From positions 3,712,001 through 3,776,000 of the forward strand of contig OX638340.1 of assembly GCA_951812955.1 (NCBI GenBank): DNA of 64,000 nucleotides, in the 5' to 3' direction. This stretch comes from an uncultured Gemmatimonadota bacterium. GTDB lineage: Bacteria; JAAXHH01. Position 1 is the stretch's first letter; each line of letters begins with the position of its first letter. Under the pieces are notes generated by a model. That model saw nothing but the letters and a program-made list of their open reading frames with translations, had not been told where the DNA came from and ran no database searches. This document shows positions 4,199 to 20,944 of the stretch, one piece after another. The position numbers and the translations under genes were made by a program.

Positions 4199-6010
4199 GA
4201 ACAGCAGTTTCCGGGTCACTTCGGACCGCGTCCCGGCCTCTCCTGTCGTCATACGGCAGAAATAGACCCCGCTGGCTACCCTTCTTCCCTCGTCGTCTGT
4301 CCCATCCCAGGTCGTGATGAACGTGCCCTGCGAATGGACCCCGTCCACGAGCGTGCGGACCTTCCGGCCCCTCACATCGTACAGGGCAAGCCCGACGTCC
4401 CCCGACCGGTCGACTTCGTACCGGACGGTGGCGGGTCCGCCGCTCAGATAAAAGGGATTCGGAAACGTGGTGAGGGATGCGGCGATCGGACGGGAAGCGC
4501 CGGTAAGCCCGGGATCGAAGGTCGCAGAATAGGCGTATTCATATCCGGCGCCTGTGCGTTCGAGCGATGCCACCACGAGCATGACGGTCTCGTACCGCGT
4601 CCAGTCCGGCACCTCGATGGTGACGCTTCCCCTGGTCGCGGGAACCGTCATCACCGAGTCCGCCGCGCCGCTACCCTCCGCGCCGCTACCCGCCACCGAA
4701 ACCCCCCAGGCTCCGGTTATGCCCGTGAATTCGATACGCAGGCCGCCATGCAGGGAGGAATCGGGCACAAAGAGTATGTAGTTCGCGGCGAGGTGTTCCG
4801 GGTAATGACCAGCGGGGATCTGTGGTCCGTCGAACTGTAACCGGTCGGAAGCGCCCGGAAGTACAGGCTCGTGCAGGTCGCTCAGTTCGACCGGGGGATA
4901 GGAGGCGCCTTCCTCGTAGTAGCGTTCCGCGTCGGCCCGCATATCGGTGAAGACGTTCCATGTCGTGAATTCCTGGAAGGCGGATGCCAGGTCGCTGCCG
5001 ACGCTTCGCAGTCCCTCGTCGATGGCTTCCAACGCCCGGCTCGTCTCTGCCCGCTCCCAGATGATACGGATCAGGTCCCTGTCGAACCGCTGCTCCAGGA
5101 ACAGCGGCCAGAGCACACCCGCGTATTCGTGTTCCCCGTTCGAGGCATCCAGCGCAAGCCATGGTTCGGTCAGGAACCCGCTGAACGACGGCAGGTAGGT
5201 AAGGTAATCGTCGACCTCGTCATAGACCTGTTCTTCGATCCACACGGCGCTTTGTTCCAGCCAGAAAGCGGCTTCCCCTGCGTCGTAGCCGAACTGAACG
5301 GCGTGGAAATACTCGTGGGCGATCGTGATCCGCAGCAGATCGAGCGCCTTCTCCACCGACCTGCGGGATTCGACGAAATCGTTATCTACGACGATGTACG
5401 AAGGAAGCGCTGCCCCGGTCGTAATCGCTTCCGGGCGGGTATAACCACTGAACTGGCTTGGGAGATCGACAATATAGACGTCGTATAGCCCGTCTCCGCC
5501 ATCGTCCGAATCCATCTCCTCGTATAGATCGTGGTACTGATAGTCCGTCGGCGGTGGGCGGTAACCCAGTTCTTCCACGATTACGCGGCGGGACTCTTCC
5601 AGGAACATCCCGCACTGCCGGACATATTCGGGAACCGTGCCGGTGTCCGCGTCTTCCAGTTCAGGCCAGCCTGCGCCGGGCCGGTCTTCCGTCGTGGTGA
5701 CGTACCAGATTTTGAAATGTCCGCCGGGGCTGACATGGTATTCAGGCTCGACCGTGTAGGAATGGCCCAGGTCGCCCGTGCGATTCCCTTCGCCGGGCAC
5801 GGTGGGCCGGCCCACTGTAACCTGGTCCGGACGGTGGGGCCTGGCGGCAATCCCGTCCGGCTGAGAATGGGCGAATGGATGGGCGTGCAAAGTTCCGCAC
5901 CGCTGCGTAGGGGGAGCCTGGGCATAAACGGCGCAGTGGGTGACCGTTCCAGCGACAAAGGTCAGGAATAATCGCTTTAAGAACGGAAGGGATGGAAAAC
6001 TACAATCCAT
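4190..6010 (-). CDS. secreted zinc metalloprotease (HEXXH) with T9SS C-terminal sorting domain
   Basis: Signal peptide MDCSFPSLPFLKRLFLTFVAGTVTHCAVYAQA and a HEYFHAVQ zinc-binding motif. The C-terminus FPNPFYLSGGPATVRYEV...GVYFCRMTTGEAGTRSEVTRKLLFLK is a Por/T9SS type A CTD. Confidence 0.8.
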   Translation of the reverse strand: MDCSFPSLPFLKRLFLTFVAGTVTHCAVYAQAPPTQRCGTLHAHPFAHSQPDGIAARPHRPDQVTVGRPTVPGEGNRTGDLGHSYTVEPEYHVSPGGHFKIWYVTTTEDRPGAGWPELEDADTGTVPEYVRQCGMFLEESRRVIVEELGYRPPPTDYQYHDLYEEMDSDDGGDGLYDVYIVDLPSQFSGYTRPEAITTGAALPSYIVVDNDFVESRRSVEKALDLLRITIAHEYFHAVQFGYDAGEAAFWLEQSAVWIEEQVYDEVDDYLTYLPSFSGFLTEPWLALDASNGEHEYAGVLWPLFLEQRFDRDLIRIIWERAETSRALEAIDEGLRSVGSDLASAFQEFTTWNVFTDMRADAERYYEEGASYPPVELSDLHEPVLPGASDRLQFDGPQIPAGHYPEHLAANYILFVPDSSLHGGLRIEFTGITGAWGVSVAGSGAEGSGAADSVMTVPATRGSVTIEVPDWTRYETVMLVVASLERTGAGYEYAYSATFDPGLTGASRPIAASLTTFPNPFYLSGGPATVRYEVDRSGDVGLALYDVRGRKVRTLVDGVHSQGTFITTWDGTDDEGRRVASGVYFCRMTTGEAGTRSEVTRKLLFLK

Positions 6011-9944: not shown

Positions 9945-9979
9945 GGAAAACAAAAAGCCGTTTCGATCGGAAACGGCTT
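9945..9979 (-). terminator. intrinsic terminator (riboswitch expression platform)
   Basis: Minus strand AAAGCCGUUUCCGAUCGAAACGGCUUUUUGUUUU: an 8-bp GC stem with a 5-nt loop followed by a U-tract, 22 nt before the thiO ATG. Consistent with an OFF-state terminator. Confidence 0.75.
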
Positions 9980-9984
9980 TGTCC

Positions 9985-10070
9985 GGCCGTTTCCCTACGC
10001 TGGTATAACCCAGGTCAGGTTCAAAGGGTCGTGATTCTCAGGCCCGCGAGGAGCCGCCCCTAACGGTAAT
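9985..10070 (-). promoter_or_regulatory. TPP (THI-box) riboswitch aptamer
   Basis: Minus-strand reading GGGGCGGCUCCUCGCGGGCCUGAGAAUCACGACCCUUUGAACCUGACCUGGGUUAUACCAGCGUAGGGAA. Matches the TPP riboswitch core (CUGAGA ... ACCCUUUGAACCUGAUCUGG.UAAU.CCAGCGUAGGGAA). Lies immediately upstream of thiO. Confidence 0.9.
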
Positions 10071-10148
10071 ATGGCAGTTTAAGAAAAGCGGATAGAGGTG
10101 TCAACGAATTCTTCCCGGTATGGATGCCCGGTGAGGTGGCCCGGCGGA

Positions 10149-12498: not shown

Positions 12499-13878
12499 TT
12501 AGCGGCCAGGTTGCATGTCCTTTCCCAGGGCGCCGTCCAGCGTGGCCTGGGCGATCAGGTAATCGTACTGCGCTCCGGCCAGATCGGATTTCGCCCGCGC
12601 CAGGGCTTCCTGCGCCGTAAAGACATCCAGCAGCGTGCCGGAACCCACCCGGTATCGTTCCTCCGCCAGCCGGAGACTCTCCTCCGCCGCCACGATGTTG
12701 TCGTTGCTGAGCGTGATGACTTCCCGGGCCGTATCCAGGTTGAGCAACGCGCGTCTGATCGTCAGCGACGTGGCCCTGCGGGTTTGTCGCAGCGTCTCCT
12801 CCGCGATCAGCTGCTGCGCCTGCGCCTGCGAAATCTCGGCATAGGTCTGCGTGCCATTCAGGATCGGCATGGTGAGATTCAAATTGAAGGAAAGCCGCCA
12901 GTTCTTGTCATAGGTGCCGTAGACATCCTGGAAGCGAACGCCCGATCGGCTGTAACCTATGTTGCCGGATACCGTTGGCCAGAGTCCACTCCGGGCCAGT
13001 TTGGTCCCGAGCAACGCGGTACGGATGCCGCCCTCATCCCGCTGGATGGCGGGATTGGTCAGGTCGGCCAGCCGAAGCGCGTCCTGTAAGCCCATGGGCG
13101 CCGTCGTGTCGAGCGACCCGCCTTCCAGCGGATCTGCGATCCGGAACACCTCGTTGGAACCGATGCCCATGACATTGGCCAGTTCGGCACGGGCCTGCAT
13201 AACCGCATTCTCCTGGTTATGCAGGTTTATGCGCACGCCGCCAAGTTGGGCCCTGGTCTGCAGTACGTCCACGCGGGCCACGGAACCGATCTCGTACATA
13301 CTCTGGGTCCGTCGCAACTGTTCCTCGTTCAGGCGAACCTGTTCTTCCGTCACTTCTTTGAGACGCAAGGCGCGTAGCAGGTTGTAGTACCGGGTCTTCA
13401 CGTCCACGGTAACCTGGTTTTCGGTATTTACCTGGTCCAGTTTCCCGTTGTCTACCAGTTGCCTGTCACGCCGGATCGTGTTCCAGTTCCTGCCGCCATT
13501 GTACAGGTCCATGCGCAGGAAGACGTTGTTGCTATAGTTCGTCCGGGTGCTGCCCTCCGCTACCTGGAGCTGGACGCCTTCGACAATGATCGGAGTATCG
13601 CCGGAAGTCGTCCGATTCGCGTTTACTAAGTTGGCGTTCAGCTGGGGCATGACACCCGAATAGGAACCGAGGACGGCGGCCTGCCGGACTTCCACCTGTT
13701 TCCGGGCGATCTCGATCTGGGGGTTGTTCTCCAGCGCGATCTGAATGCATCTGTCCAGCGTGTAAAAAGCGCCCTGGTCGGGATCGATTCCGGCGTTCTG
13801 CCCGTGCGCTTTCTCCGCGGGGGACAACAGGCCAGTTACGATCAGGACGGCCCAGCAGATCGTATTCCGCATCATCAT
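12499..13878 (-). CDS. TolC-family outer-membrane efflux protein
   Basis: Signal peptide MMMRNTICWAVLIVTGLL, a repeated coiled-coil/beta structure, and ...LDRCIQIALENNPQIEIARKQVE..., a typical OEP/TolC N-terminus. No cognate pump is adjacent. Confidence 0.8.
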   Translation of the reverse strand: MMMRNTICWAVLIVTGLLSPAEKAHGQNAGIDPDQGAFYTLDRCIQIALENNPQIEIARKQVEVRQAAVLGSYSGVMPQLNANLVNANRTTSGDTPIIVEGVQLQVAEGSTRTNYSNNVFLRMDLYNGGRNWNTIRRDRQLVDNGKLDQVNTENQVTVDVKTRYYNLLRALRLKEVTEEQVRLNEEQLRRTQSMYEIGSVARVDVLQTRAQLGGVRINLHNQENAVMQARAELANVMGIGSNEVFRIADPLEGGSLDTTAPMGLQDALRLADLTNPAIQRDEGGIRTALLGTKLARSGLWPTVSGNIGYSRSGVRFQDVYGTYDKNWRLSFNLNLTMPILNGTQTYAEISQAQAQQLIAEETLRQTRRATSLTIRRALLNLDTAREVITLSNDNIVAAEESLRLAEERYRVGSGTLLDVFTAQEALARAKSDLAGAQYDYLIAQATLDGALGKDMQPGR

Positions 13879-14040
13879 TGTATATCTCCTTGTTTCAATG
13901 GTAACGAAGGACCCTTTCAAGAATTAGACGGATAACCAGCCGAATTCCCGCGCAACAGATTGATTTATCTGTTAGACCCCGGACAGAATGGAAGGTTTCC
14001 GATTAACTGAGAAAGCGGGGAGAGAGAGGACGTCCGTCCG

Positions 14041-15180
14041 TCACCTGCGGCGTCGCCAGAGTATCAACAGGCCGACCGCGAGGACTCCCGCGCCCGCGCC
14101 GATCCACGAAGTATAACCCGTGGGAGAGGGAGATGCGGAGACCGCCGGCTTGATCGTGCAGAGCGAGGTGAGCAGTTCGACGGATTCGCTCACGGCCACG
14201 TCGCCGATCACCGTGAAGAGCTTTCCATCGTAATGCCTGCGCAGAATGGAATAGGGGCCGCGGTCCCACACGCGCACGTCGCCGAGCAGTTCGGGCGTAC
14301 CCTTGGGAGACATGTGAGACGCTTCGGAAGATGCGATCCGCTGGAAGAGCGAGATTCGCGAGAGGCCGTCGCTGTACATGAAATGCACGAGCGGCCGGCC
14401 GTGGTGCTGAATGACGCGGCGCTGCTGGAGGGCGAATCCCGGCGGAACGTAAACCGGGGCGTTCAATCTGAAATCCGCTTCCTGCTGCACTTCGCTGATG
14501 GATCCACAGGCAATGACCTGATTGATTTCGACGGACTTGCCCGTCCATTCCTCCGTAGCGAAGAGGTCCGGCGGGATAGACGGATCTTTTTCGAATTCCG
14601 TCAGGAAGAGTTCCTCGACGAGTACACCGGCCTCGTTGCGTTCTTCAGTCCGCATCACCAGGCCCGTTTCCTCGTCGATCCACGCCTTCATGGTCATTCT
14701 GCCGGGATGGCGGGGCTTGAAAGCCAGGACGGCCACCGGACGGTCGAGAAGCCGGTCGGCGCCGGTAATTTCGAGTTCGTAGTTGGTTTGAAGCAGATCG
14801 AGACTGCTGAACTCCAGGTTCATATCGAGCAGGTTGGAGTTCGACTGTCGGCGGTGCGAATAGAAGAGCGAGTCTCCCGAGGCCTTCCGCCGGTATATGT
14901 CGTCGTCCACGCGGATGATGACCTCACGGATGCGACCATCCGAATCGGGGATGTCGATGCGGTCCCGGTCAGGACGCTGATGGGTTATTCTCTGGACATA
15001 GCGGGTGGTGTCCCCCGCCGCGTTGAACCGCTGCTTCGTCATCGTGGCACGGTAGCTCACGCGGGCCGGAGCTTCCATGATCTTCTGGTAGGTTACATCC
15101 GGATCGACTGCGCGGACGGGAGAAGGGCTCGAAAGGCAGGCCGCGGCAACGAAACAGAGGAATACAGGTCGAAACATCAT
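14041..15180 (-). CDS. periplasmic MucB/RseB-like (LolA-fold) sigma-E regulatory protein with C-terminal TM/Arg tail
   Basis: Signal peptide MMFRPVFLCFVAAACLSSPSPVRA. Its position directly after the ECF sigma and anti-sigma genes (10-nt gaps) supports this call. The protein ends PSPTGYTSWIGAGAGVLAVGLLILWRRRR. Confidence 0.5.
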   Translation of the reverse strand: MMFRPVFLCFVAAACLSSPSPVRAVDPDVTYQKIMEAPARVSYRATMTKQRFNAAGDTTRYVQRITHQRPDRDRIDIPDSDGRIREVIIRVDDDIYRRKASGDSLFYSHRRQSNSNLLDMNLEFSSLDLLQTNYELEITGADRLLDRPVAVLAFKPRHPGRMTMKAWIDEETGLVMRTEERNEAGVLVEELFLTEFEKDPSIPPDLFATEEWTGKSVEINQVIACGSISEVQQEADFRLNAPVYVPPGFALQQRRVIQHHGRPLVHFMYSDGLSRISLFQRIASSEASHMSPKGTPELLGDVRVWDRGPYSILRRHYDGKLFTVIGDVAVSESVELLTSLCTIKPAVSASPSPTGYTSWIGAGAGVLAVGLLILWRRRR

Positions 15181-15190
15181 GGCGTATCGC

Positions 15191-15682
15191 CTATTCCTTG
15201 TAGTTGACCATGACGGAACCCAGGGTACCGCTGGTAAAAACGCTTTGATCCTCGATCAGGGCGTGTTCCTGCAGGATGAAGAACATATCGTCGTTCGAGA
15301 TCGTCTGCTGGACGGCCGGCGTATCGACCGGCCTGATCGACTGCCAGATCAGCCCGCCGGCCACCAGTAAAAGCGTGGCAGCGACTGCGATGTATTGACG
15401 GGGCTGCTTGGTGCGCGACGCATCCCTTTTTTTCATGCCCGGAACCATATGGGCGTGTGTCGTGCGTTCCAGAATCGCAGTCTGGACTTCCGCTGCCACC
15501 ACCGCCGTGGGCTTCTCCAGGCGGCAGCAGCGCAACATGCCGCGGACGGACTGCAATCCGCGCAATTCCCGCGCGCAACCGGGGCAGGACTCGATGTGCC
15601 GCGCGATTTCGGCGACTTCCTCGTTGCCGCACATGCGCTCCAGGTAGAACGTGAGCCGTTTCTTTATCTGGTTGCAGTTCAT
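15191..15682 (-). CDS. anti-sigma factor with zf-HC2 zinc finger and single TM helix
   Basis: C3...H29..C33PGC36 matches the zf-HC2 pattern. A TM helix YIAVAATLLLVAGGLIW follows. Sits 9 nt downstream of the ECF sigma gene. Confidence 0.8.
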   Translation of the reverse strand: MNCNQIKKRLTFYLERMCGNEEVAEIARHIESCPGCARELRGLQSVRGMLRCCRLEKPTAVVAAEVQTAILERTTHAHMVPGMKKRDASRTKQPRQYIAVAATLLLVAGGLIWQSIRPVDTPAVQQTISNDDMFFILQEHALIEDQSVFTSGTLGSVMVNYKE

Positions 15683-15691
15683 GGCTTGGTC

Positions 15692-16363
15692 CTATAGATC
15701 CAGGTATCCGGCGAGTCGCTTGGAAAGCACGCGCTTCAACTTGAGCCGTCCGTGATGCAGCCGGGACATCACCGTCCCTTCGGGACACTGAAGTATCTCC
15801 GCGATCTGCCGGTGGGAGAGACCTTCCAGGTCGAACAGCACGACAACGGTCCGGTGCCGCTCCGACAGGGTATCCAGCGCGGCCATAATGGACCGCTTCA
15901 ACTCAGCGTTCTCCAGCACCTCGTGCGGAGTTTTCTCTGAGGACGGCAGATTGGAAACTAGAAACTGCTTTCCGGTGCCGCCGTTCCGCCCGCCGTAATC
16001 CGAAAAGGAGTACATGCGGCGTCGGGCCTCCCGCTTGCGGTAGTTGATACACTTGTTGATCAAAATGCGGTATAGCCAGGTCGAAAACCTATACTGCGTG
16101 TTGAACCGTTCCAGCGTTCTAAACACTTCGAGAAAGGCGTCCTGAACGAGGTCGCGCGCGTCATCGTGGCTCGCGAGCATCTGGTACGCCACGGAATAGG
16201 CCTTCTCGCTGTATCGCCTCGTCATTTCGTCGAAGGCGGAGCCATCGCCTGATTTGGCCCGTTCCATCAACCTTCGTTCTTCTTCGCGCCGGTCTTCGCT
16301 CGCGCCCTGGACGGCCGGTCTTTTCCGTTCCGCTACCGAATGGATTTTGCTGACGGTGTTCAC
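15692..16363 (-). CDS. RNA polymerase ECF sigma factor (sigma-E/sigma-24 family)
   Basis: Region 2 (DLVQDAFLEVFRTLERF...FSTWLYRILINKCINYRK) and region 4 (LSHRQIAEILQCPEGTVMSRLHHGRLKLK) are both recognisable. Confidence 0.9.
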   Translation of the reverse strand: MNTVSKIHSVAERKRPAVQGASEDRREEERRLMERAKSGDGSAFDEMTRRYSEKAYSVAYQMLASHDDARDLVQDAFLEVFRTLERFNTQYRFSTWLYRILINKCINYRKREARRRMYSFSDYGGRNGGTGKQFLVSNLPSSEKTPHEVLENAELKRSIMAALDTLSERHRTVVVLFDLEGLSHRQIAEILQCPEGTVMSRLHHGRLKLKRVLSKRLAGYLDL

Positions 16364-16491
16364 CCAGTTACACCCCTGGTCCTATCCCATGCGTCTCTGT
16401 GACTGAATCCGTATACATCCTCAATCAGTTTATCTTCACAAAATGGCCGGATTCACGGCTGTTAAATCGTTTTGGATACACGTTACGGATA

Positions 16492-17469
16492 CTATGCAAG
16501 GCTGATTTCATTGGATTTCCGATACATCTCGAGTGCCTTGTCGAGCTGTCTGCTCTTGTCGTAGATCATGCCGAGATACCGGTACGCCTGTTCATTGCGC
16601 GGTTCATGACGGAGCAGGGTTTCGAAGTGCTCGATCGCTTCCGCATGCTTATCCACGTGACAGTATGCCTTGCCCAGTTGGAGATATACCTCCGCCTTCG
16701 ACCGGTCCACGTCCAACGCGCGGGAGAGTATCTTGATCGCTTCGTCGTAGATTCCGATAGTGATGTAAAGTACGCCGAGCTGATAGCAGGCCCGGTAAGA
16801 ATAAGGATCGTATTCCAGGGCGCTATGGAGGTCGGTCCTGGCATCCTCGAATTGTCCCATTTCCGCGTACAGCGCCGCACGGTCGACCAGCGTATCTATA
16901 TGTCCCGAATCGATCGCCAGGGCGCGATTGTAATGCTCACGCGCGGTTTCCTGGGCGCCGAGGCGGCAGTACATCCTGCCCAGACTGCCCATCGCGGCGG
17001 TGTGACCGGGATGCTGTTCGAGAATACGTCTGTACTGCTGGATCGCCAGTTCGGTTTTACCCTTATTCGCGAGGATCTCCGCCCGGTTCATCATCGCGGA
17101 GAGATCGTCGGTTCTGTTTTTTGGCGTTTCTTCGGCGTGTTGTTTCACCGTACCGGCAGATTCCGGCCTGGCAGGCTCTTCGGAAAGGGGCGACTGGCTC
17201 GCCACGGTGTCTTTCAAGGCATCGAAAGGAACGAAATGGGGAATGTTGCGGTCGTTCAGGCGCAATCCCACGTTGGAATTCAGATCTCGCGCCATGCGTG
17301 CTTTCCTGACTTTTACACTGAAGGCGCCGAACCGGTGGAGGTTCACTCGTTCGTCCCGGGAAATCGCCTCGTTTACTTCCGACAGGAACGCGTTGAGCAC
17401 TGCAGACACCCTGCGCCTGGAGACCTGGGTCCTGGATGCCACTTCGTTTACTAGCGATTCTCTGTTCAT
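16492..17469 (-). CDS. HU/IHF-family DNA-binding domain fused to a C-terminal TPR-repeat domain
   Basis: From MNRESLVNEVASRTQVSRRRVSAVLNAFLSEVNEAISRDERVNLHRFGAFSVKVRKARMARD...IPHFVPFDALKD is a clear HU fold. It is followed by ~6 TPR repeats (AIQQYRRILEQHP..., EHYNRALAIDSGH..., AIKILSRALDVD..., AIEHFETLLRHEP...). The start is taken at the M beginning the HU domain. Confidence 0.7.
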   Translation of the reverse strand: MNRESLVNEVASRTQVSRRRVSAVLNAFLSEVNEAISRDERVNLHRFGAFSVKVRKARMARDLNSNVGLRLNDRNIPHFVPFDALKDTVASQSPLSEEPARPESAGTVKQHAEETPKNRTDDLSAMMNRAEILANKGKTELAIQQYRRILEQHPGHTAAMGSLGRMYCRLGAQETAREHYNRALAIDSGHIDTLVDRAALYAEMGQFEDARTDLHSALEYDPYSYRACYQLGVLYITIGIYDEAIKILSRALDVDRSKAEVYLQLGKAYCHVDKHAEAIEHFETLLRHEPRNEQAYRYLGMIYDKSRQLDKALEMYRKSNEISLA

Positions 17470-17707
17470 GGTGCTCCGGCTATGCTGAGGCGAAGCCGCA
17501 ATCGCCGTCGGGGAGCCCGTCCCGGCATGGCGACGACCGCCGTATATCGTGTTCTGCCAGTGACGTTTCAGGAAGGTCAAACGCTCGCACGCCTGGCCGC
17601 GTCATCTGGCTGTTAAGTATTATGGTCGTGATACCGAAAATCGGCCGTATCCTGCCGCATGTCAAGCAGGAATGAATGGACCGTGCGCTTATTGATCCTG
17701 CCCGGGC

Positions 17708-17730
17708 AACAAAAAGCGCACTGGCGCTAC
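17708..17730 (-). terminator. possible intrinsic terminator after PmoA-like gene
   Basis: Minus strand AGCGCCAGUGCGCUUUUUGUU: a 5-bp GC stem with a 4-nt loop and U5, overlapping the TAG stop. A weak stem. Confidence 0.35.
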
Positions 17731-18650
17731 GTCCGGTCACGCCTGTCCGATTCTATCACGTAGGACCTGTACAGTTCATCGATCTCCCCTTCTCCGGGCA
17801 CGTTGTCCAGCACCAGGAATCCGTAACGGAGATGAAGGCTTTCCGTTGGTCGGAGCGTAAAGTCTTCCTCCATAAGCGGCCCTGTGCCCAGCAGGTTGCG
17901 GCGGGTAAACCAGTGCACCGGGTGGCGTAGGTTTCGCGGATGGTCCATGAGCACCACCATGCCACCCTGGGCGCCCGCGGCGCCGACCCACCTGTCCCGT
18001 GTTCTCATGATGGTTTCGTGTCCGCTGCGGCCGCTGCCGCTCGTATGGAACGCGTCCGCGAACGGAGGTCCCATTCGCAGGACCAAACCGCTGTAACGGG
18101 CGGCCCGCGAAGCTCCCATGGTGATTTCCTCCCCGATCGGAGTGATCACCGATTCGATGAGCCACAGACAGCCGCCGGCCCTGGCGGTCTCCAGGAACTC
18201 GAACCGCCGCGACTCCGTGATCAGCGGGCGGTCGTTGCGGTCCAGCCAGGTGAGATTTTCGCCTACCGCGACCCCGGATGCTCCATTTGCAGCCGGTGTG
18301 AATCCATCGTGGCGCTGAACGCCGTGGCTGTCCGGAACAGGAACGTATTCACCTTGTTCCGGCAGGTACCAGGAACCTCCCCAGAAATTGGTGTCGTTGA
18401 CGTGCACCCAGCCGAAATACAACCCCGTGTGCCAGGTGTGGTCGTCGGGACGGTATTCGCTGACCAGGCCGCCGGAAGGGGTGTAAACCGGATGAAAACA
18501 TGGCTTGGGCGATTCGTCCCGCGGCAACCGGTCGGTCGCGACGTTGTACCGGCACAGCAACCGGCGGTCCGCATAGACCTCGAATCCGTCCGCTTCGTTG
18601 ACTTCGAGCCGAAGATGGCTTAGGTTTCTTTTGAATGCGTCTGATCTCAT
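17727..18650 (-). CDS. hypothetical protein, possibly PmoA-family (DUF6807)
   Basis: 307 aa with no signal peptide and W/H-rich motifs (WHTGLYFGWVHVNDTNFWGGSWY). The family assignment comes from memory of PmoA-like proteins that neighbour Gfo/Idh/MocA genes and is not verifiable here. Confidence 0.35.
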   Translation of the reverse strand: MRSDAFKRNLSHLRLEVNEADGFEVYADRRLLCRYNVATDRLPRDESPKPCFHPVYTPSGGLVSEYRPDDHTWHTGLYFGWVHVNDTNFWGGSWYLPEQGEYVPVPDSHGVQRHDGFTPAANGASGVAVGENLTWLDRNDRPLITESRRFEFLETARAGGCLWLIESVITPIGEEITMGASRAARYSGLVLRMGPPFADAFHTSGSGRSGHETIMRTRDRWVGAAGAQGGMVVLMDHPRNLRHPVHWFTRRNLLGTGPLMEEDFTLRPTESLHLRYGFLVLDNVPGEGEIDELYRSYVIESDRRDRT

Positions 18651-18712
18651 AACTGGTGCCTTTACATGGATTATTCGATGCGACGAACCCCGTGCAATCC
18701 CGATCGGTTACT

Positions 18713-20944
18713 ATGAAGCTCAGCGCGGTACTGTTTTCCCTGCTGTTGATTCACGCCCCGGCGCAGGCCGCCACGATAAGCGGATTCGTCACGGATCGTA
18801 CCAGCGGTGAATTCCTGCTCTCCGCGAACGTATTCCTGAGCGGAACGTCGTTGGGCGCCTTGAGCAATGAGAGCGGCTATTATGCAATTACCGGGATACC
18901 CGCGGGATCCTACGTCCTCATCGTGTCATACCTCGGATACGAGACGCACCGGGACTCGCTTAGTCTCGGCGCCGAAGCGTATCTTCGGCTGGACGTGACC
19001 CTCGCGCCGACCGTGCTGATCGGCGAGGAAACCGTAGTCGAGGCGGATCGAAACAGAGACGAGCGCCTGGCTCAACCCGGTTTCGTCGCCCTCCAGGCCG
19101 CGGTACTGCAGGAGCTGCCCGCCATAGGGGAAACCGACTTGTTGCGCAGCCTGCAGCTCCTTCCGGGCATCCAGGCATCGTCGGATATAAGCAGCGGCCT
19201 GTACATCCGGGGCGGCGGTCCCGATCAGACCCAGATACTTCTCGATCAGATCCCCCTCTACAATCCCTCGCACGCATTCGGATTCTTTTCCATTTTCAAT
19301 CCGGAAGCCATCAAGGACATGCGCCTGCACAAGAGCGCTTATCCCGCCAGTTACGGCGGCAACCTCGGTGCGGTGCTCGACGTGACGAACCGCGACGGCA
19401 ACCGCAACGACCTTCGCGGATCGGGCGGAATCAGCCTCATCTCGATGCGCACCATGATCGAAGGCCCCCTTGCACGCGGCTCTTTCATGGTTTCCGGAAG
19501 GCGAACGTACCTGGAACCGATCCTGGCCTATATCCGGCGGCGCGTAGAGGATATCCCAGGATACTATTTCTATGATGTGAATGCGAAAATCAACCAGAAT
19601 CTGTCCTACTCGGACAATCTGGTGCTGAGCGGATACTTCGGCCGGGACGACCTGAACCTCGAAACCAGCGACGACAACCACTTCAACGTCCGCTGGGGCA
19701 ATTCCGCGATAACGGGCAAATGGACGCACCTGTTCTCGCCTACGCTATTCGGCAATTTCATTGTTTCGGGAAGCGACTACGCGAGCCGGCTTTCGGCGAA
19801 TTTCGACGGAACGGAAGTGCTCTTCAGGAACAGCATTCGGGACATCAGCGTCAAGGGCGACCTGGACTATGTCGCCGACGACCAACACGCGCTGAAGGGC
19901 GGTTTCCGCGCTACGGGATACCGGTTCAGATTCAAGCGGAGCTTCAACCAGGATGATCAGCTCGACCTCAGGCTGAGGCCCTACGTAGTCTCGGTATATG
20001 CCCAGGACCAGTGGCAGGCGCTGCCTTCGACCTCGATTCGCCTGGGACTGCGCGGGAACTATTACAGCGAACGCGGCAAGATCGACCTGGAGCCTCGTGT
20101 TTCGCTCAGTCACCGGCTGCCCGGCGGGTTGCGGCTGAAGGCGGGCGGCGGACGGTACCACCAGTACCTGCAACTGATCACCACGGAGGGCTTCAGCGGC
20201 GGCGATTTCTGGGTGCCGCTCGACAGCAGTGTGGAACCCGGTCAGGCGTGGCATTTCGTCATCGGCGCAAGTTGGGACCCGGCGCCGAACTACCGGCTAT
20301 CGCTCGAATCCTACTATCAGCGTTTGGGCAACCTGGTCGTCGTGGACAACACGCGGGCGGCAGGCGCCGATGAAACCCGGTCTGAGGACGTGTTCATCAC
20401 CGGTGGCAGGGGGTACGCCACGGGTGTGGAGCTGTTTGTGGAGCGCATGTCGGGCAGATTGACAGGATGGATCGGCTACACGCTCGGGTGGACGCGCCGC
20501 CAGTTCCCGGAACTGAACCAGGGTGACTGGTTTCCTCCGAAGTACGACCGTCGCCACGATCTCGTGGTTTCGGCCAATTACAGGGCCGGCCGCTGGACAT
20601 TTGGATGCAATGTGATTTTCGCAACCGGGCAGGCCTTCACGCCCGCCTCTGCCCGTTACGAATTGAGGGAATCGGCGCGAACCGGCATACGGGAGGACTA
20701 TTTCCTGCCCACCGGGCGCAATACCGCGCGGTTGCTGCCATACCACCGGGTGGACCTGAGCGTCAAGCAGGATTTTCGCCTGTTCGGCCGAGATCTCCAG
20801 TGGTATCTGCAGGTATTCAACGCCTACAATCATCGCAACGAATGGTTTATTCAGTACAATACGGAAGATGACGGGATCACCACCGCGGATGTGGTGAAGA
20901 TGCTGCCCATCGTACCGACGCTCGGCCTGAACTACGAATTCTGA
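18713..20944 (+). CDS. TonB-dependent outer-membrane receptor (SusC-like, CarboxypepD_reg N-domain + plug + barrel)
   Basis: Signal peptide MKLSAVLFSLLLIHAPAQA, then ATISGFVTDRTSGEFLLSANVF...GYYAITGIPAGSYVLIVSYLGYETH (carboxypeptidase-regulatory-like). Plug motifs are present, and the protein ends with a C-terminal aromatic residue (...LGLNYEF). Confidence 0.9.
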   Translation: MKLSAVLFSLLLIHAPAQAATISGFVTDRTSGEFLLSANVFLSGTSLGALSNESGYYAITGIPAGSYVLIVSYLGYETHRDSLSLGAEAYLRLDVTLAPTVLIGEETVVEADRNRDERLAQPGFVALQAAVLQELPAIGETDLLRSLQLLPGIQASSDISSGLYIRGGGPDQTQILLDQIPLYNPSHAFGFFSIFNPEAIKDMRLHKSAYPASYGGNLGAVLDVTNRDGNRNDLRGSGGISLISMRTMIEGPLARGSFMVSGRRTYLEPILAYIRRRVEDIPGYYFYDVNAKINQNLSYSDNLVLSGYFGRDDLNLETSDDNHFNVRWGNSAITGKWTHLFSPTLFGNFIVSGSDYASRLSANFDGTEVLFRNSIRDISVKGDLDYVADDQHALKGGFRATGYRFRFKRSFNQDDQLDLRLRPYVVSVYAQDQWQALPSTSIRLGLRGNYYSERGKIDLEPRVSLSHRLPGGLRLKAGGGRYHQYLQLITTEGFSGGDFWVPLDSSVEPGQAWHFVIGASWDPAPNYRLSLESYYQRLGNLVVVDNTRAAGADETRSEDVFITGGRGYATGVELFVERMSGRLTGWIGYTLGWTRRQFPELNQGDWFPPKYDRRHDLVVSANYRAGRWTFGCNVIFATGQAFTPASARYELRESARTGIREDYFLPTGRNTARLLPYHRVDLSVKQDFRLFGRDLQWYLQVFNAYNHRNEWFIQYNTEDDGITTADVVKMLPIVPTLGLNYEF

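Follow-up and report, generated by a model that had tools for sequence, protein, structure and literature searches.

An HU/IHF DNA-binding domain fused to six TPRs is encoded next to an ECF sigma factor module and may act as a DNA-anchored adaptor

The window (the whole 64-kb stretch of DNA that was analyzed) contains, at positions 16492-17469 of the minus strand, a coding sequence for a protein, here called HU-TPR, in which an HU/IHF DNA-binding domain is followed by an acidic linker and six TPRs. HU/IHF proteins are nearly always free-standing nucleoid proteins of ∼90 aa. The coding sequence was defined from its ORF and translation, from Pfam matches to both HU and TPR, and from 30+ full-length orthologues. 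It begins with an ATG at 17469, with GGAG located 8 nt 5' of this codon, and ends with a stop codon at 16492-16494, giving a product of 325 aa. A TTG start at 17580, which would yield a protein of 362 aa, was considered and rejected because the orthologues are mostly 320-326 aa long and because the -10 element of a conserved promoter lies only ∼5 nt 5' of the ATG in four related loci.

Also on the minus strand are genes for an ECF sigma factor of 223 aa (15692-16363; Pfam Sigma70_r2 plus r4_2, NCBIfam sigma70-ECF at 119 bits versus 43), an anti-sigma factor of 163 aa with an N-terminal zf-HC2 (ZAS) domain (15191-15682; Pfam zf-HC2 at E=1.3e-7, NCBIfam anti-sigma below cutoff), a MucB/RseB-like protein of 379 aa (14041-15180; Pfam MucB_RseB, 57.9 bits for the N-terminal and 30.0 bits for the C-terminal part), and a TolC-family outer-membrane channel (OEP; 12499-13920), whose start is uncertain and which matches NCBIfam TolC at E=1.5e-54, below the curated cutoff, with PF02321 present in orthologous loci. 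The anti-sigma factor is ZAS-type and is not an RseA_N homologue. The combination of Sigma70_r2/r4_2, zf-HC2, and MucB_RseB domains with a conserved upstream ECF element identifies an RpoE/RseA/RseB-type module.

The original prediction had read HU-TPR as one fused protein, a reading that would fail if the ORF were two separate genes or if the HU domain were a decayed relic. Pfam, the AF2 model, and the presence of the same single ORF across dozens of independent assemblies all agree with a single fused protein. That HU and TPR genes were joined artefactually, through faulty sequencing or assembly or through a frameshift, had no supporting point and is effectively refuted by the uninterrupted ORF, which recurs in >30 assemblies that are independent and stem from different studies, closed chromosomes of 3.7-3.9 Mb among them, and by a linker that stays in-frame though it is variable.

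The HU/IHF fold predicted at the N terminus was confirmed. Residues 1-90 (17200-17469) form the DNA-binding domain; PF00216 (Bac_DNA_binding) matches residues 1-89 to positions 1-89 of its 90-position profile (E=7.9e-20, 71.3 bits versus a cutoff of 22.4), and phmmer aligns the HU part gaplessly with the solved HU proteins of Thermus, Anabaena, and Thermotoga (E∼3e-10). F47, G48, F50, P77, and F79 are invariant in HU-TPR alignments of 21 and 14 sequences, and F47, F50, and F79 correspond to the hydrophobic core and dimer-interface aromatics of established HU structures. R55, R58, R61, R74, and K86 are also invariant in the family alignments (A1 and A2), as are A60, P81, and F82, with R58 replaced by His in one locus found later (L093). 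This pattern of invariance argues against a decayed HU domain. HU-TPR misses the cutoff of every NCBIfam HU/IHF equivalog, the best being IHF-beta (51 bits versus 115), and scores 39.9 bits against HU-alpha (cutoff 162); as judged by these profiles, it is not a named HU-alpha/beta or IHF-alpha/beta orthologue. The nearest standalone HUs are of the FCB type, share 33-36% identity with it, and have the canonical ARVARNPKTG tip, the form read in standalone Latescibacteria HUs.

The beta-arm, as delimited from the two family alignments, comprises residues 52-76 (VKVRKARMARDLNSNVGLRLNDRNI; 17242-17316). Its net charge is +5 here and +2 to +5 across the family, more positive than that of E. coli HU-alpha, and the HU domain as a whole is basic (pI 11.3 in the window, 9.5-11.3 over all members). 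In the AF2 monomer, arm residues 46-82 have pLDDT <50, as expected of an isolated protomer. The one feature of the predicted arm that did not hold is the R-x-G-R-N-P-like motif. The window sequence reads R58-M-A-R61-D-L63-N-S-N, with Leu at position 63 where Pro is canonical, and the tip motif is R-D-L-N-(S/T)-N family-wide, so that the intercalating-proline motif R-N-P-x-T-G is absent. Of the 14 sequences aligned in A2, 13 have Leu at position 63 and the other (L025) has Phe, as does a locus found later (L092). The family-wide loss of Pro63 and the NPxTG tip would fit an HU domain that no longer binds DNA and has become a protein- or RNA-binding clasp within a protein-level scaffold, as proposed for HU-CCDC81 and HU-HIG, and non-DNA roles have been proposed for derived HU clades (PMC5499826). 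We consider this very unlikely, given that R55, R58, R61, and K86 are kept, that the arm charge exceeds that of E. coli HU-alpha, unlike in HU-CCDC81, and that residue 63 is always a large hydrophobic (Leu/Phe) compatible with a DNA wedge.

Following the HU domain, AF2 gives pLDDT <50 over a disordered acidic linker at residues 91-118 (17116-17199). Its length of ∼28-30 aa in the window is about half the ∼60 aa originally estimated; across the family the linker is poorly conserved and ranges from 30 to 77 aa. The remainder of the protein, residues 119-325 (16495-17115), consists of six canonical TPRs that form a superhelix, as assigned from Pfam, AF2, and Foldseek, in agreement with the predicted number. 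TPR_1 and TPR_2 score 109 and 107 bits (Pfam, E∼1e-32) over residues ∼123-320, and AF2 models 12 helices over residues 119-324 with pLDDT 88-98 and a 34-residue periodicity. The C terminus carries a near-invariant motif, LGxIYDK...KALEMY(R/Q)xSN, and H271, D304, K305, Y316, and N320 are invariant in the family. The best Foldseek matches of the TPRs in the PDB are consensus TPR and OGT (each at E∼1e-11), MamA, and PilF; these are generic TPR matches, and none in this search indicates a function. A Pfam BTAD match (39.7 bits, residues 118-185), confined to the TPR-like part, was set aside as a generic TPR-clan cross-match, since in a distant orthologue it falls below cutoff and shifts to another repeat.

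Intact HU-TPR orthologues were found in 23 species-level genomes plus further metagenome contigs. The family is apparently confined to Latescibacterota, an uncultured phylum. Some of the hosts are sponge symbionts. Sequence comparison across 36-99% identity indicates that both domains are under purifying selection. A canonical 92-aa HU is present besides HU-TPR in at least one genome, as shown by the standalone HU P0318, which shares assembly GCA_016209865.1 with HU-TPR P0035; HU-TPR is thus a specialised paralogue. No second, canonical HU gene was found in the 64-kb window. A phmmer search of the whole library with the full protein was dominated by giant multi-TPR proteins, the true relatives being P0001, P0227, P0036, P0231, and the fragment P0033, so this search cannot rule out HU+TPR architectures outside the family. 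An HU-only profile search, whose matches were all short proteins or truncated fragments, identified the nearest standalone HUs but was of no use for detecting other fusions.

HU-TPR lies directly 5' of the ECF sigma/ZAS anti-sigma/RseB-like/TolC-like module in 31 of the 32 loci with enough flank, that is, in all GTDB species genomes (23/23) and in every further metagenome locus with enough flank except L089. The adjacency spans clades that are only 36-40% identical and whose outer flanks differ, and the sigma factor retains 73-80% identity even versus distant clades. The upstream flank of the core carries DUF6807 together with a TonB receptor gene in one clade but Wzz/Wzy in a second; the downstream flank has ThiOSG at some loci and YceG/RuvX at others. 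Through this turnover, the core PorV-like/HU-TPR/pX/sigma/anti-sigma/RseB/OEP persists. The PorV-family gene shares an operon with HU-TPR in clades other than that of the window, and pX, an acidic protein without a Pfam or NCBIfam match, is translationally coupled in the loci of other clades; no homologue of either was found in the 64-kb window. At L089, the sigma/anti-sigma/RseB trio is missing from the site and HU-TPR adjoins the TolC-like gene, yet this HU-TPR retains 47 of 49 family-invariant residues, which indicates that an adjacent sigma gene is not required. In addition, the OEP gene, a 729-aa gene, and ThiO/S/G located 3' of HU-TPR are syntenic across clades, so the adjacency may partly reflect inherited gene order and not selection.

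A candidate sigma-A-type promoter for HU-TPR is located at 17637-17665, ∼165-195 nt 5' of the ATG, with TTGACA at 17665-17660, a 17-nt spacer, and GATTTT at 17642-17637. All close loci share the conserved block cTTGCTTGACA-N17-GATTTTCGG, and distant clades have a CTTGAC-N18-(T/G)AT(A/T)TT element 5' of the PorV-like/HU-TPR operon. A generic sigma-70 scan missed this promoter because of its weak -10 element. A hairpin scan placed a terminator-like hairpin with a T-run at 17715-17728, after the upstream DUF6807 gene. As read from these promoter elements, HU-TPR is transcribed from its own constitutive-looking sigma-A-type promoter and not from an ECF promoter.

The sigma operon has an ECF-type promoter at 16411-16438 (TGAAGA-N15-TGTATAC). 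This element is conserved in every locus, distant clades included (TGAAGGTTTT...TGTATA), as TGAAG-N15-16-TGTATAC, and the pattern has one match in the 64-kb window versus 0.00 expected. We take it to resemble the SigW-type promoter TGAAAC-N16-CGTATA, and we infer that the sigma operon is probably autoregulated through this promoter. Neither an ECF-type promoter 5' of HU-TPR nor a further regulon member could be found convincingly in the window. No conserved candidate operator was found 5' of the ECF -35 element, and in one locus (L026) the pX stop codon is only 6 nt from it. The interval from HU-TPR to the sigma promoter contains no conserved base pairs according to RNAalifold, and the single hairpin present in the window is not conserved; in the absence of a conserved terminator there, read-through from HU-TPR into the sigma operon is possible.

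These data bear in two directions on the regulatory link between HU-TPR and the ECF operon that the original prediction drew from their proximity. The link is strengthened by adjacency in 31 of 32 loci and weakened by the missing trio at L089 and by the sigma-A-type promoter of HU-TPR. The latter two observations would be expected if HU-TPR were a general nucleoid-associated protein whose TPRs self-associate, as those of MamA do, or link HU dimers to one another and thereby organise or compact the DNA, the ECF adjacency then being inherited synteny. The consensus -35 of its constitutive-type promoter, the presence of self-assembling MamA among the top TPR matches in both NCBIfam and Foldseek, and the synteny of unrelated downstream genes point the same way. 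This explanation is nevertheless rather unlikely in our view, because a canonical HU is also present (shown in at least one genome), the family is narrow, the linkage to the sigma and OEP genes outlasts flank turnover and gene insertions, and the NCBIfam match to MamA, at 90.6 bits, falls well short of the 200 bits required for that family.

HU-TPR could also be a one-component, signal-responsive regulator whose TPRs sense a peptide or protein ligand, as in RRNPP regulators (PlcR, NprR, Rap) or TPR-containing activators, and control HU-mediated DNA binding at a regulon of its own, such as the PorV-like or TolC-like genes, acting in parallel to the ECF sigma factor and not through it. The invariant, non-consensus residues H271, D304, and K305 are suggestive of a ligand groove, their placement at helix-A positions 12-13 of TPR5-6 having been derived from canonical TPR geometry, and HU-TPR both adjoins the OEP gene in L089 and shares an operon with the PorV-family gene elsewhere. 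HU/IHF domains, however, usually have low or structural specificity and not operator-type recognition. Neither a gene for a signalling peptide nor a conserved operator turned up at the HU-TPR loci, and homology to RRNPP regulators is limited to generic TPR matches. An N-terminal DNA-binding domain followed by C-terminal TPRs does mirror the layout of RRNPP and SARP proteins (SARP: PMC11301090), but we regard this regulator role, including its independence from the sigma factor, as unlikely.

We tentatively favor, at somewhat less than even confidence, the proposal that HU-TPR is a lineage-specific HU paralogue that has become a DNA-anchored adaptor or architectural cofactor tuning the neighboring ECF system. 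Like other HUs, HU-TPR would dimerise through its HU body, and the two beta-arms of the dimer would clamp and bend DNA with Leu63 in place of Pro as the wedge. A dimer clamped in this way would present two TPR domains as a docking site for a partner protein at the DNA. This partner would most likely come from the neighboring pathway and could be RNA polymerase that carries the ECF sigma factor and acts at ECF promoters, the complex of sigma and anti-sigma factor, or pX in other clades. HU-TPR may then tune ECF output as an architectural cofactor in a manner comparable to CarD-CarG or to the DNA-binding-plus-BTAD design of SARPs. The conserved position at the head of the cluster suggests, from gene order, a DNA-anchored adaptor for an envelope-stress pathway. 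A bolder proposal, which we hold to be rather doubtful, is that HU-TPR founds a novel class of proteins accessory to sigma factors, in which an HU/IHF clamp is combined with a TPR platform; the platform would recruit or position the ECF-sigma RNA polymerase or would tether the membrane sigma/anti-sigma complex and pX to the chromosome.

If the adaptor proposal is correct, the conserved joining of an HU domain with a canonical TPR scaffold would mean that a DNA-bending module is used in nature to position a protein-recruitment platform. To our knowledge, architectural cofactors dedicated to ECF pathways are known mainly from myxobacterial CarD-CarG, and HU-TPR, with its near-obligate place leading an RpoE/RseB-like module, provides a case in which such a cofactor could be tested. 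The family-wide change of Pro63 to Leu or Phe provides a natural variant for studying DNA kinking by the HU arm. Were HU-TPR to represent a new accessory class, it would add a phylum-specific layer of control to an otherwise classical RpoE-like envelope-stress pathway, and its Pro-to-Leu arm tip would imply a distinct mode of DNA bending. The impact is limited by the restriction of the family to an uncultured phylum, in which it is known here from sequences and models.

HU-TPR resembles canonical HU/IHF proteins (E. coli HU-alpha/beta and IHF-alpha/beta, Anabaena HU 1P51, Thermotoga HU 1B8Z) in its collinear, gapless ∼90-aa domain, sharing with them F47-G48-x-F50, P77, F79, R55, R58, R61, K86, and a basic arm. 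It differs from them in its C-terminal linker and six TPRs and in the change of the tip from NPKTG to DLNTN (Pro63 to Leu/Phe). In a survey of HU fusions, HU-HIG proteins, a Bacteroidetes expansion, carry wHTH, Ig, or Gly-rich partners, and HU-CCDC81 proteins, whose positive charge is drastically reduced, carry a coiled coil or a TM segment plus peptidoglycan-binding SPOR/LysM (PMC5499826, Burroughs et al. 2017). HU-TPR is like these proteins in having HU at the N terminus of a longer polypeptide; unlike them, it has a TPR partner, lacks a TM segment or second HU, keeps its arm charge, and occurs in Latescibacterota and not in Bacteroidetes or eukaryotes. PF18291 (HU-HIG) scores 37.6 bits on HU-TPR, weaker than PF00216 at 71.3, and on domain composition HU-TPR falls outside the HU-HIG clade, as its C-terminal partner is TPR and not wHTH, Ig, or Gly-rich. 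The main text of the fusion survey contains no occurrence of a TPR partner (PMC5499826), the ECF reclassification paper makes no mention of an HU-TPR protein (PMC7826278), and no relevant publication on proteins combining HU with TPR emerged from full-text literature searches.

RRNPP regulators combine HTH with TPR and sense peptides. SARPs recruit RNA polymerase through an OmpR-type DNA-binding domain and a BTAD domain, whose helical repeats contact RNA polymerase/sigma (PMC11301090). HU-TPR shares with both an N-terminal DNA-binding domain followed by TPR-like helical repeats but differs in that its DNA-binding module is HU and not wHTH/HTH. In Myxococcus, CarD-CarG combines an architectural minor-groove DNA binder with a protein-interaction module and is needed at ECF promoters (PMC6061681, PMC4374960). 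The analogy with HU-TPR is functional only and involves no homology; CarD has HMGA-type AT-hooks and a CarD_CdnL_TRCF RNA polymerase-binding domain, neither of which is matched in HU-TPR by Pfam. In ECF42, a C-terminal TPR extension is essential for sigma activity (PMC8999054). TPRs are thus coupled to an ECF sigma factor in ECF42 (PMC8999054, PMC7826278) and, by our proposal, in the HU-TPR system, where they are carried instead by a separate HU-bearing protein and where the sigma factor, unlike ECF42, has a classical membrane zf-HC2 anti-sigma factor and an RseB-like partner.

The HU-TPR gene is on the minus strand, exactly at the originally predicted positions (16492–17469), with an ATG at 17469, a stop codon at 16492–16494, and a GGAG located 8 nt 5' of the ATG. 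A longer ORF of 362 aa that starts at a TTG (17580) and is used by one database entry was rejected, as most orthologs contain 320–326 aa; it is also countered by a conserved −10 element only ∼5 nt before the ATG in four related genomes. When the 325-aa product was scanned with Pfam, both predicted domains were detected. Residues 1–89 matched positions 1–89 of the 90 in PF00216 (E = 7.9e-20; 71 bits, compared with a cutoff of 22 bits) and aligned without gaps to the solved HU structures of Thermus, Anabaena, and Thermotoga, and a strong TPR signal was present at residues ∼123–320 (TPR_1, E = 3.5e-32; TPR_2, E = 1.1e-31). In an AlphaFold2 model that used a 21-sequence family alignment as input, residues 119–324 formed 12 helices with a 34-residue periodicity (block pLDDT 88–98), which indicates six TPRs, as had been proposed, in a canonical TPR superhelix. 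Residues 91–118 were disordered in this model, and the linker is ∼28–30 aa, shorter than the ∼60 aa of the original prediction; its length in other family members is 30–77 aa. All members have a basic HU domain (pI 9.5–11.3, arm net charge +2 to +5), followed by an acidic linker and an acidic TPR domain (TPR pI 4.9–6.3).

A search of 5.8 billion proteins identified ∼35 clusters that share this architecture at 34–99% identity, and outside these clusters returned TPR-only proteins alone. When GTDB was scanned with one genome per species, 23 species-level genomes contained a full-length HU-TPR gene, and several of these are closed chromosomes of 3.7–3.9 Mb. Scanning metagenomes for the HU domain provided eight further full-length copies. 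This conservation of the full-length ORF excludes a mis-assembly or frameshift, including the split gene that the original prediction had named as a possible refutation, and the chance that HU-TPR is an artefact is negligible. HU-TPR genes thus form a genuine family that is under selection. In public records the protein is named merely "tetratricopeptide repeat protein" (fragments are "HU family DNA-binding protein, partial"), and its sources are labeled Candidatus Latescibacterota or, for several sponge-derived MAGs (APA_bin_41, SB0665_bin_8, and IRC1_bin_16), "Gemmatimonadetes bacterium." Sponge-MAG versions (P0001, L005, and L087) are 95–99% identical to the window protein, and shared synteny suggests that all carriers belong to one phylum.

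In the first family alignments, HU-domain residues F47, G48, F50, V52, R55, R58, A60, R61, R74, P77, F79, P81, F82, and K86 were invariant; in L093, the most divergent of the later loci, 7 of the 49 invariant columns were changed, including R58 to His. The tip of the arm is R58-M-A-R61-D62-L63-N-S-N66, not the RNP-like sequence that had been reported. The family arm is RKAR(M/V)ARDLN(S/T)N, and that of the nearest standalone HU proteins (92–99 aa, 33–36% identical to HU-TPR, several from Latescibacteria MAGs) is RKARVARNPKTGQEIRIPPR. This comparison shows that the scaffold, including A60, is common to both, with the standalone tip NPKTG replaced by DLNTN in the HU-TPR family. Pro63, the canonical intercalating residue of the HU arm tip, is Leu in 13 of 14 diverse HU-TPR sequences and Phe in L025, as it is in the later locus L092, and the remodeled tip is hydrophobic.

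Based on its profile match, collinearity, and key residues, HU-TPR belongs to the HU/IHF superfamily, and its scores below all NCBIfam HU/IHF equivalog cutoffs, together with the missing tip proline, indicate a divergent paralog rather than an HU/IHF ortholog. A standalone HU (P0318) and an HU-TPR (P0035) are encoded in the same assembly (GCA_016209865.1), showing that HU-TPR is an extra paralog and not the sole HU of the cell; no second HU gene was found in the 64-kb window. A role as a general nucleoid organizer, in which the TPRs mediate bridging, is unlikely. It is highly improbable that the HU domain is a clasp that does not bind DNA. Decay of this domain had been raised as a concern, yet its core and DNA-contact residues are retained, and the arm keeps its arginines and positive charge, in contrast to HU-CCDC81 of Burroughs et al. 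(PMC5499826).

The minus strand of the window contains, in order, genes for a DUF6807 protein, HU-TPR, ECF σ (15692–16363), a zf-HC2 anti-σ (15191–15682), a MucB/RseB-like protein (14041–15180), and a TolC-family outer-membrane channel (OEP, 12499–13920). The gap between HU-TPR and the ECF σ gene is 128 nt, in agreement with the predicted location just 5' of the σ operon. The DUF6807 gene (17727–18650, minus strand; Pfam E = 2.7e-55) has a terminator-like hairpin 3' of it, and orthologs of the divergently transcribed plus-strand ORF (18656–20944) contain CarboxypepD_reg and Plug domains, which are typical of TonB-dependent receptors; this flank is limited to the window's clade. A TPP riboswitch (9975–10071, minus strand; Rfam RF00059, 69.9 bits, compared with a gathering score of 54.3) is probably 5' of thiO, thiS, and thiG, which in orthologous loci come after the OEP gene and the 729-aa gene. 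The RseB-like C terminus (14041–14110, minus strand) contains a hydrophobic stretch and then four arginines (...WIGAGAGVLAVGLLILWRRRR) and looks like a membrane anchor, a predicted feature that would be unusual compared with the soluble periplasmic RseB/MucB of proteobacteria.

The order from HU-TPR through σ, anti-σ, and RseB-like to OEP is found in all 23 GTDB genomes, and HU-TPR is linked to the σ module in 31 of the 32 loci that have enough flanking sequence. The exception, L089 (contig MDTE01008031.1, 516 kb; L089:4879–8442), has DUF6807, HU-TPR, and OEP genes, with the σ, anti-σ, and RseB-like genes absent there, and its HU-TPR keeps 47 of the 49 family-invariant residues. L089 is from a low-GC relative. 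In divergent clades (L025, L026 = L004, L082 = L094, L083, L084, L086, L091, and L093; HU-TPR 36–43% identical), the upstream flank consists of divergent Wzz/Wzy polysaccharide genes instead of the DUF6807 and TonB receptor genes found elsewhere, and the downstream flank of a 729-aa gene with ThiO/S/G in some and YceG/RuvX in others. The retained core is a PorV/PorQ-family outer-membrane protein, HU-TPR, an acidic protein that we call pX, σ, anti-σ, RseB-like, and OEP. Synteny across clades also extends to some unrelated downstream genes, and the linkage may therefore be due in part to phylogenetic inertia. RseB-like homologs retrieved down to 45% identity all came from the HU-TPR-containing cluster, and among them there was no outgroup with the σ module and without HU-TPR. 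Between-clade identity is 69–80% for σ (window 15692–16363 against L025, L026, L082–L086, and L093), compared with 36–43% for HU-TPR, 32–49% for anti-σ, 40–56% for RseB-like, and 48–58% for OEP, values which suggest that the ECF σ is under unusually strong constraint.

In the divergent clades, the PorV-like gene (NCBIfam PorV_fam, 115 bits, compared with a cutoff of 90; L025:4964–5995, L083:2141–3172, L084:1968–3098, and L086:697–1839) is the first gene of the σA-driven operon containing HU-TPR. One operon thus joins genes for an outer-membrane β-barrel and a cytoplasmic DNA-binding protein. pX (408–492 aa; L025:7071–8327, L082:4242–5714, L083:4233–5711, L084:4250–5701, and L086:2944–4170), which has no Pfam or NCBIfam match, is encoded between HU-TPR and σ. 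The start of pX is adjacent to the stop of HU-TPR or overlaps with it, suggesting translational coupling, and pX is a candidate TPR partner. The window's clade lacks both pX and the PorV-like gene.

Between HU-TPR and σ, every locus contains the element TGAAG(A/G)-N15–16-TGTATAC (16438–16411, minus strand; TGAAGGTTTT...TGTATA in distant clades), and the 64-kb window has a single match to the strict pattern, compared with 0.00 expected. It resembles SigW/ECF-type promoters (TGAAAC-N16-CGTATA) and, as judged by sequence, is consistent with the auto-regulated promoter that is usual for ECF σ factors. The conserved element upstream of HU-TPR (17665–17637, minus strand), cTTGCTTGACA-N17-GATTTTCGG, is unlike the ECF-type element and by its sequence is σA-type; in low-GC relatives it is TTGACA-N17-TAATAT or TATTTT. 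In distant clades, the σA-type promoter is 5' of the PorV-like gene and so would drive PorV-like, HU-TPR, and pX. No ECF-type promoter was found 5' of HU-TPR, which, with the σA-type promoter, indicates that HU-TPR is made independently of the ECF σ. Read-through from HU-TPR into the σ operon is possible, as there is no conserved terminator structure between HU-TPR and the σ promoter. The HU-TPR mRNA leader (17470–17636, minus strand) is ∼165 nt, as in most relatives, differs among them by indels of tens of nt, and contains nothing at Rfam gathering thresholds. In L008, L015, L018, and L023 (around 5962–6003), the −10 is only ∼5 nt before the ATG, pointing to near-leaderless mRNAs there and to the ∼165-nt leader as an insertion.

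Many TPR consensus positions were invariant in the first family alignments, as were the non-consensus residues Q145, H156, Y241, H271, E283, D304, K305, M315, and N320, and the C-terminal motif LGx(I/L)YDK...KALEMY(R/Q)xSN is fully or almost invariant. H271, D304, and K305 occupy helix-A positions 12–13 of TPR5–6, which in canonical TPRs face the concave ligand groove, and TPR geometry would place these three residues in that groove. It is doubtful that HU-TPR is a one-component regulator that senses a ligand and controls a separate regulon of outer-membrane genes, a reading less probable than the nucleoid organizer. We tentatively prefer a DNA-anchored adaptor or cofactor. Such a protein would dimerize as HU does, would clamp and bend DNA with Leu63 as the wedge, and could use its two TPR platforms to dock a partner on the DNA.

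HU-TPR is not a member of HU-HIG or HU-CCDC81. The main survey of HU/IHF fusions names coiled-coil, EF-hand, dynein, TM plus SPOR/LysM, wHTH, Ig, and Gly-rich partners, and its main text makes no mention of TPRs (PMC5499826); the passages on ECF reclassification that we consulted describe no HU-TPR-like neighbor (PMC7826278). The architecture is novel and the family narrow, and a functional link to the ECF module is plausible. The TPR partner would most plausibly come from the adjacent ECF pathway, a reasonable proposal given three precedents. CarD-CarG combines a minor-groove architectural binder with a protein-interaction module and localizes to ECF-σ promoters, where it is required (PMC6061681 and PMC4374960). 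ECF42 σ activity needs TPR extensions, with protein interaction as the proposed mode (PMC8999054), and SARPs join a DNA-binding domain to a TPR-like BTAD that touches the β-flap, σ region 4, and the α-CTD (PMC11301090).
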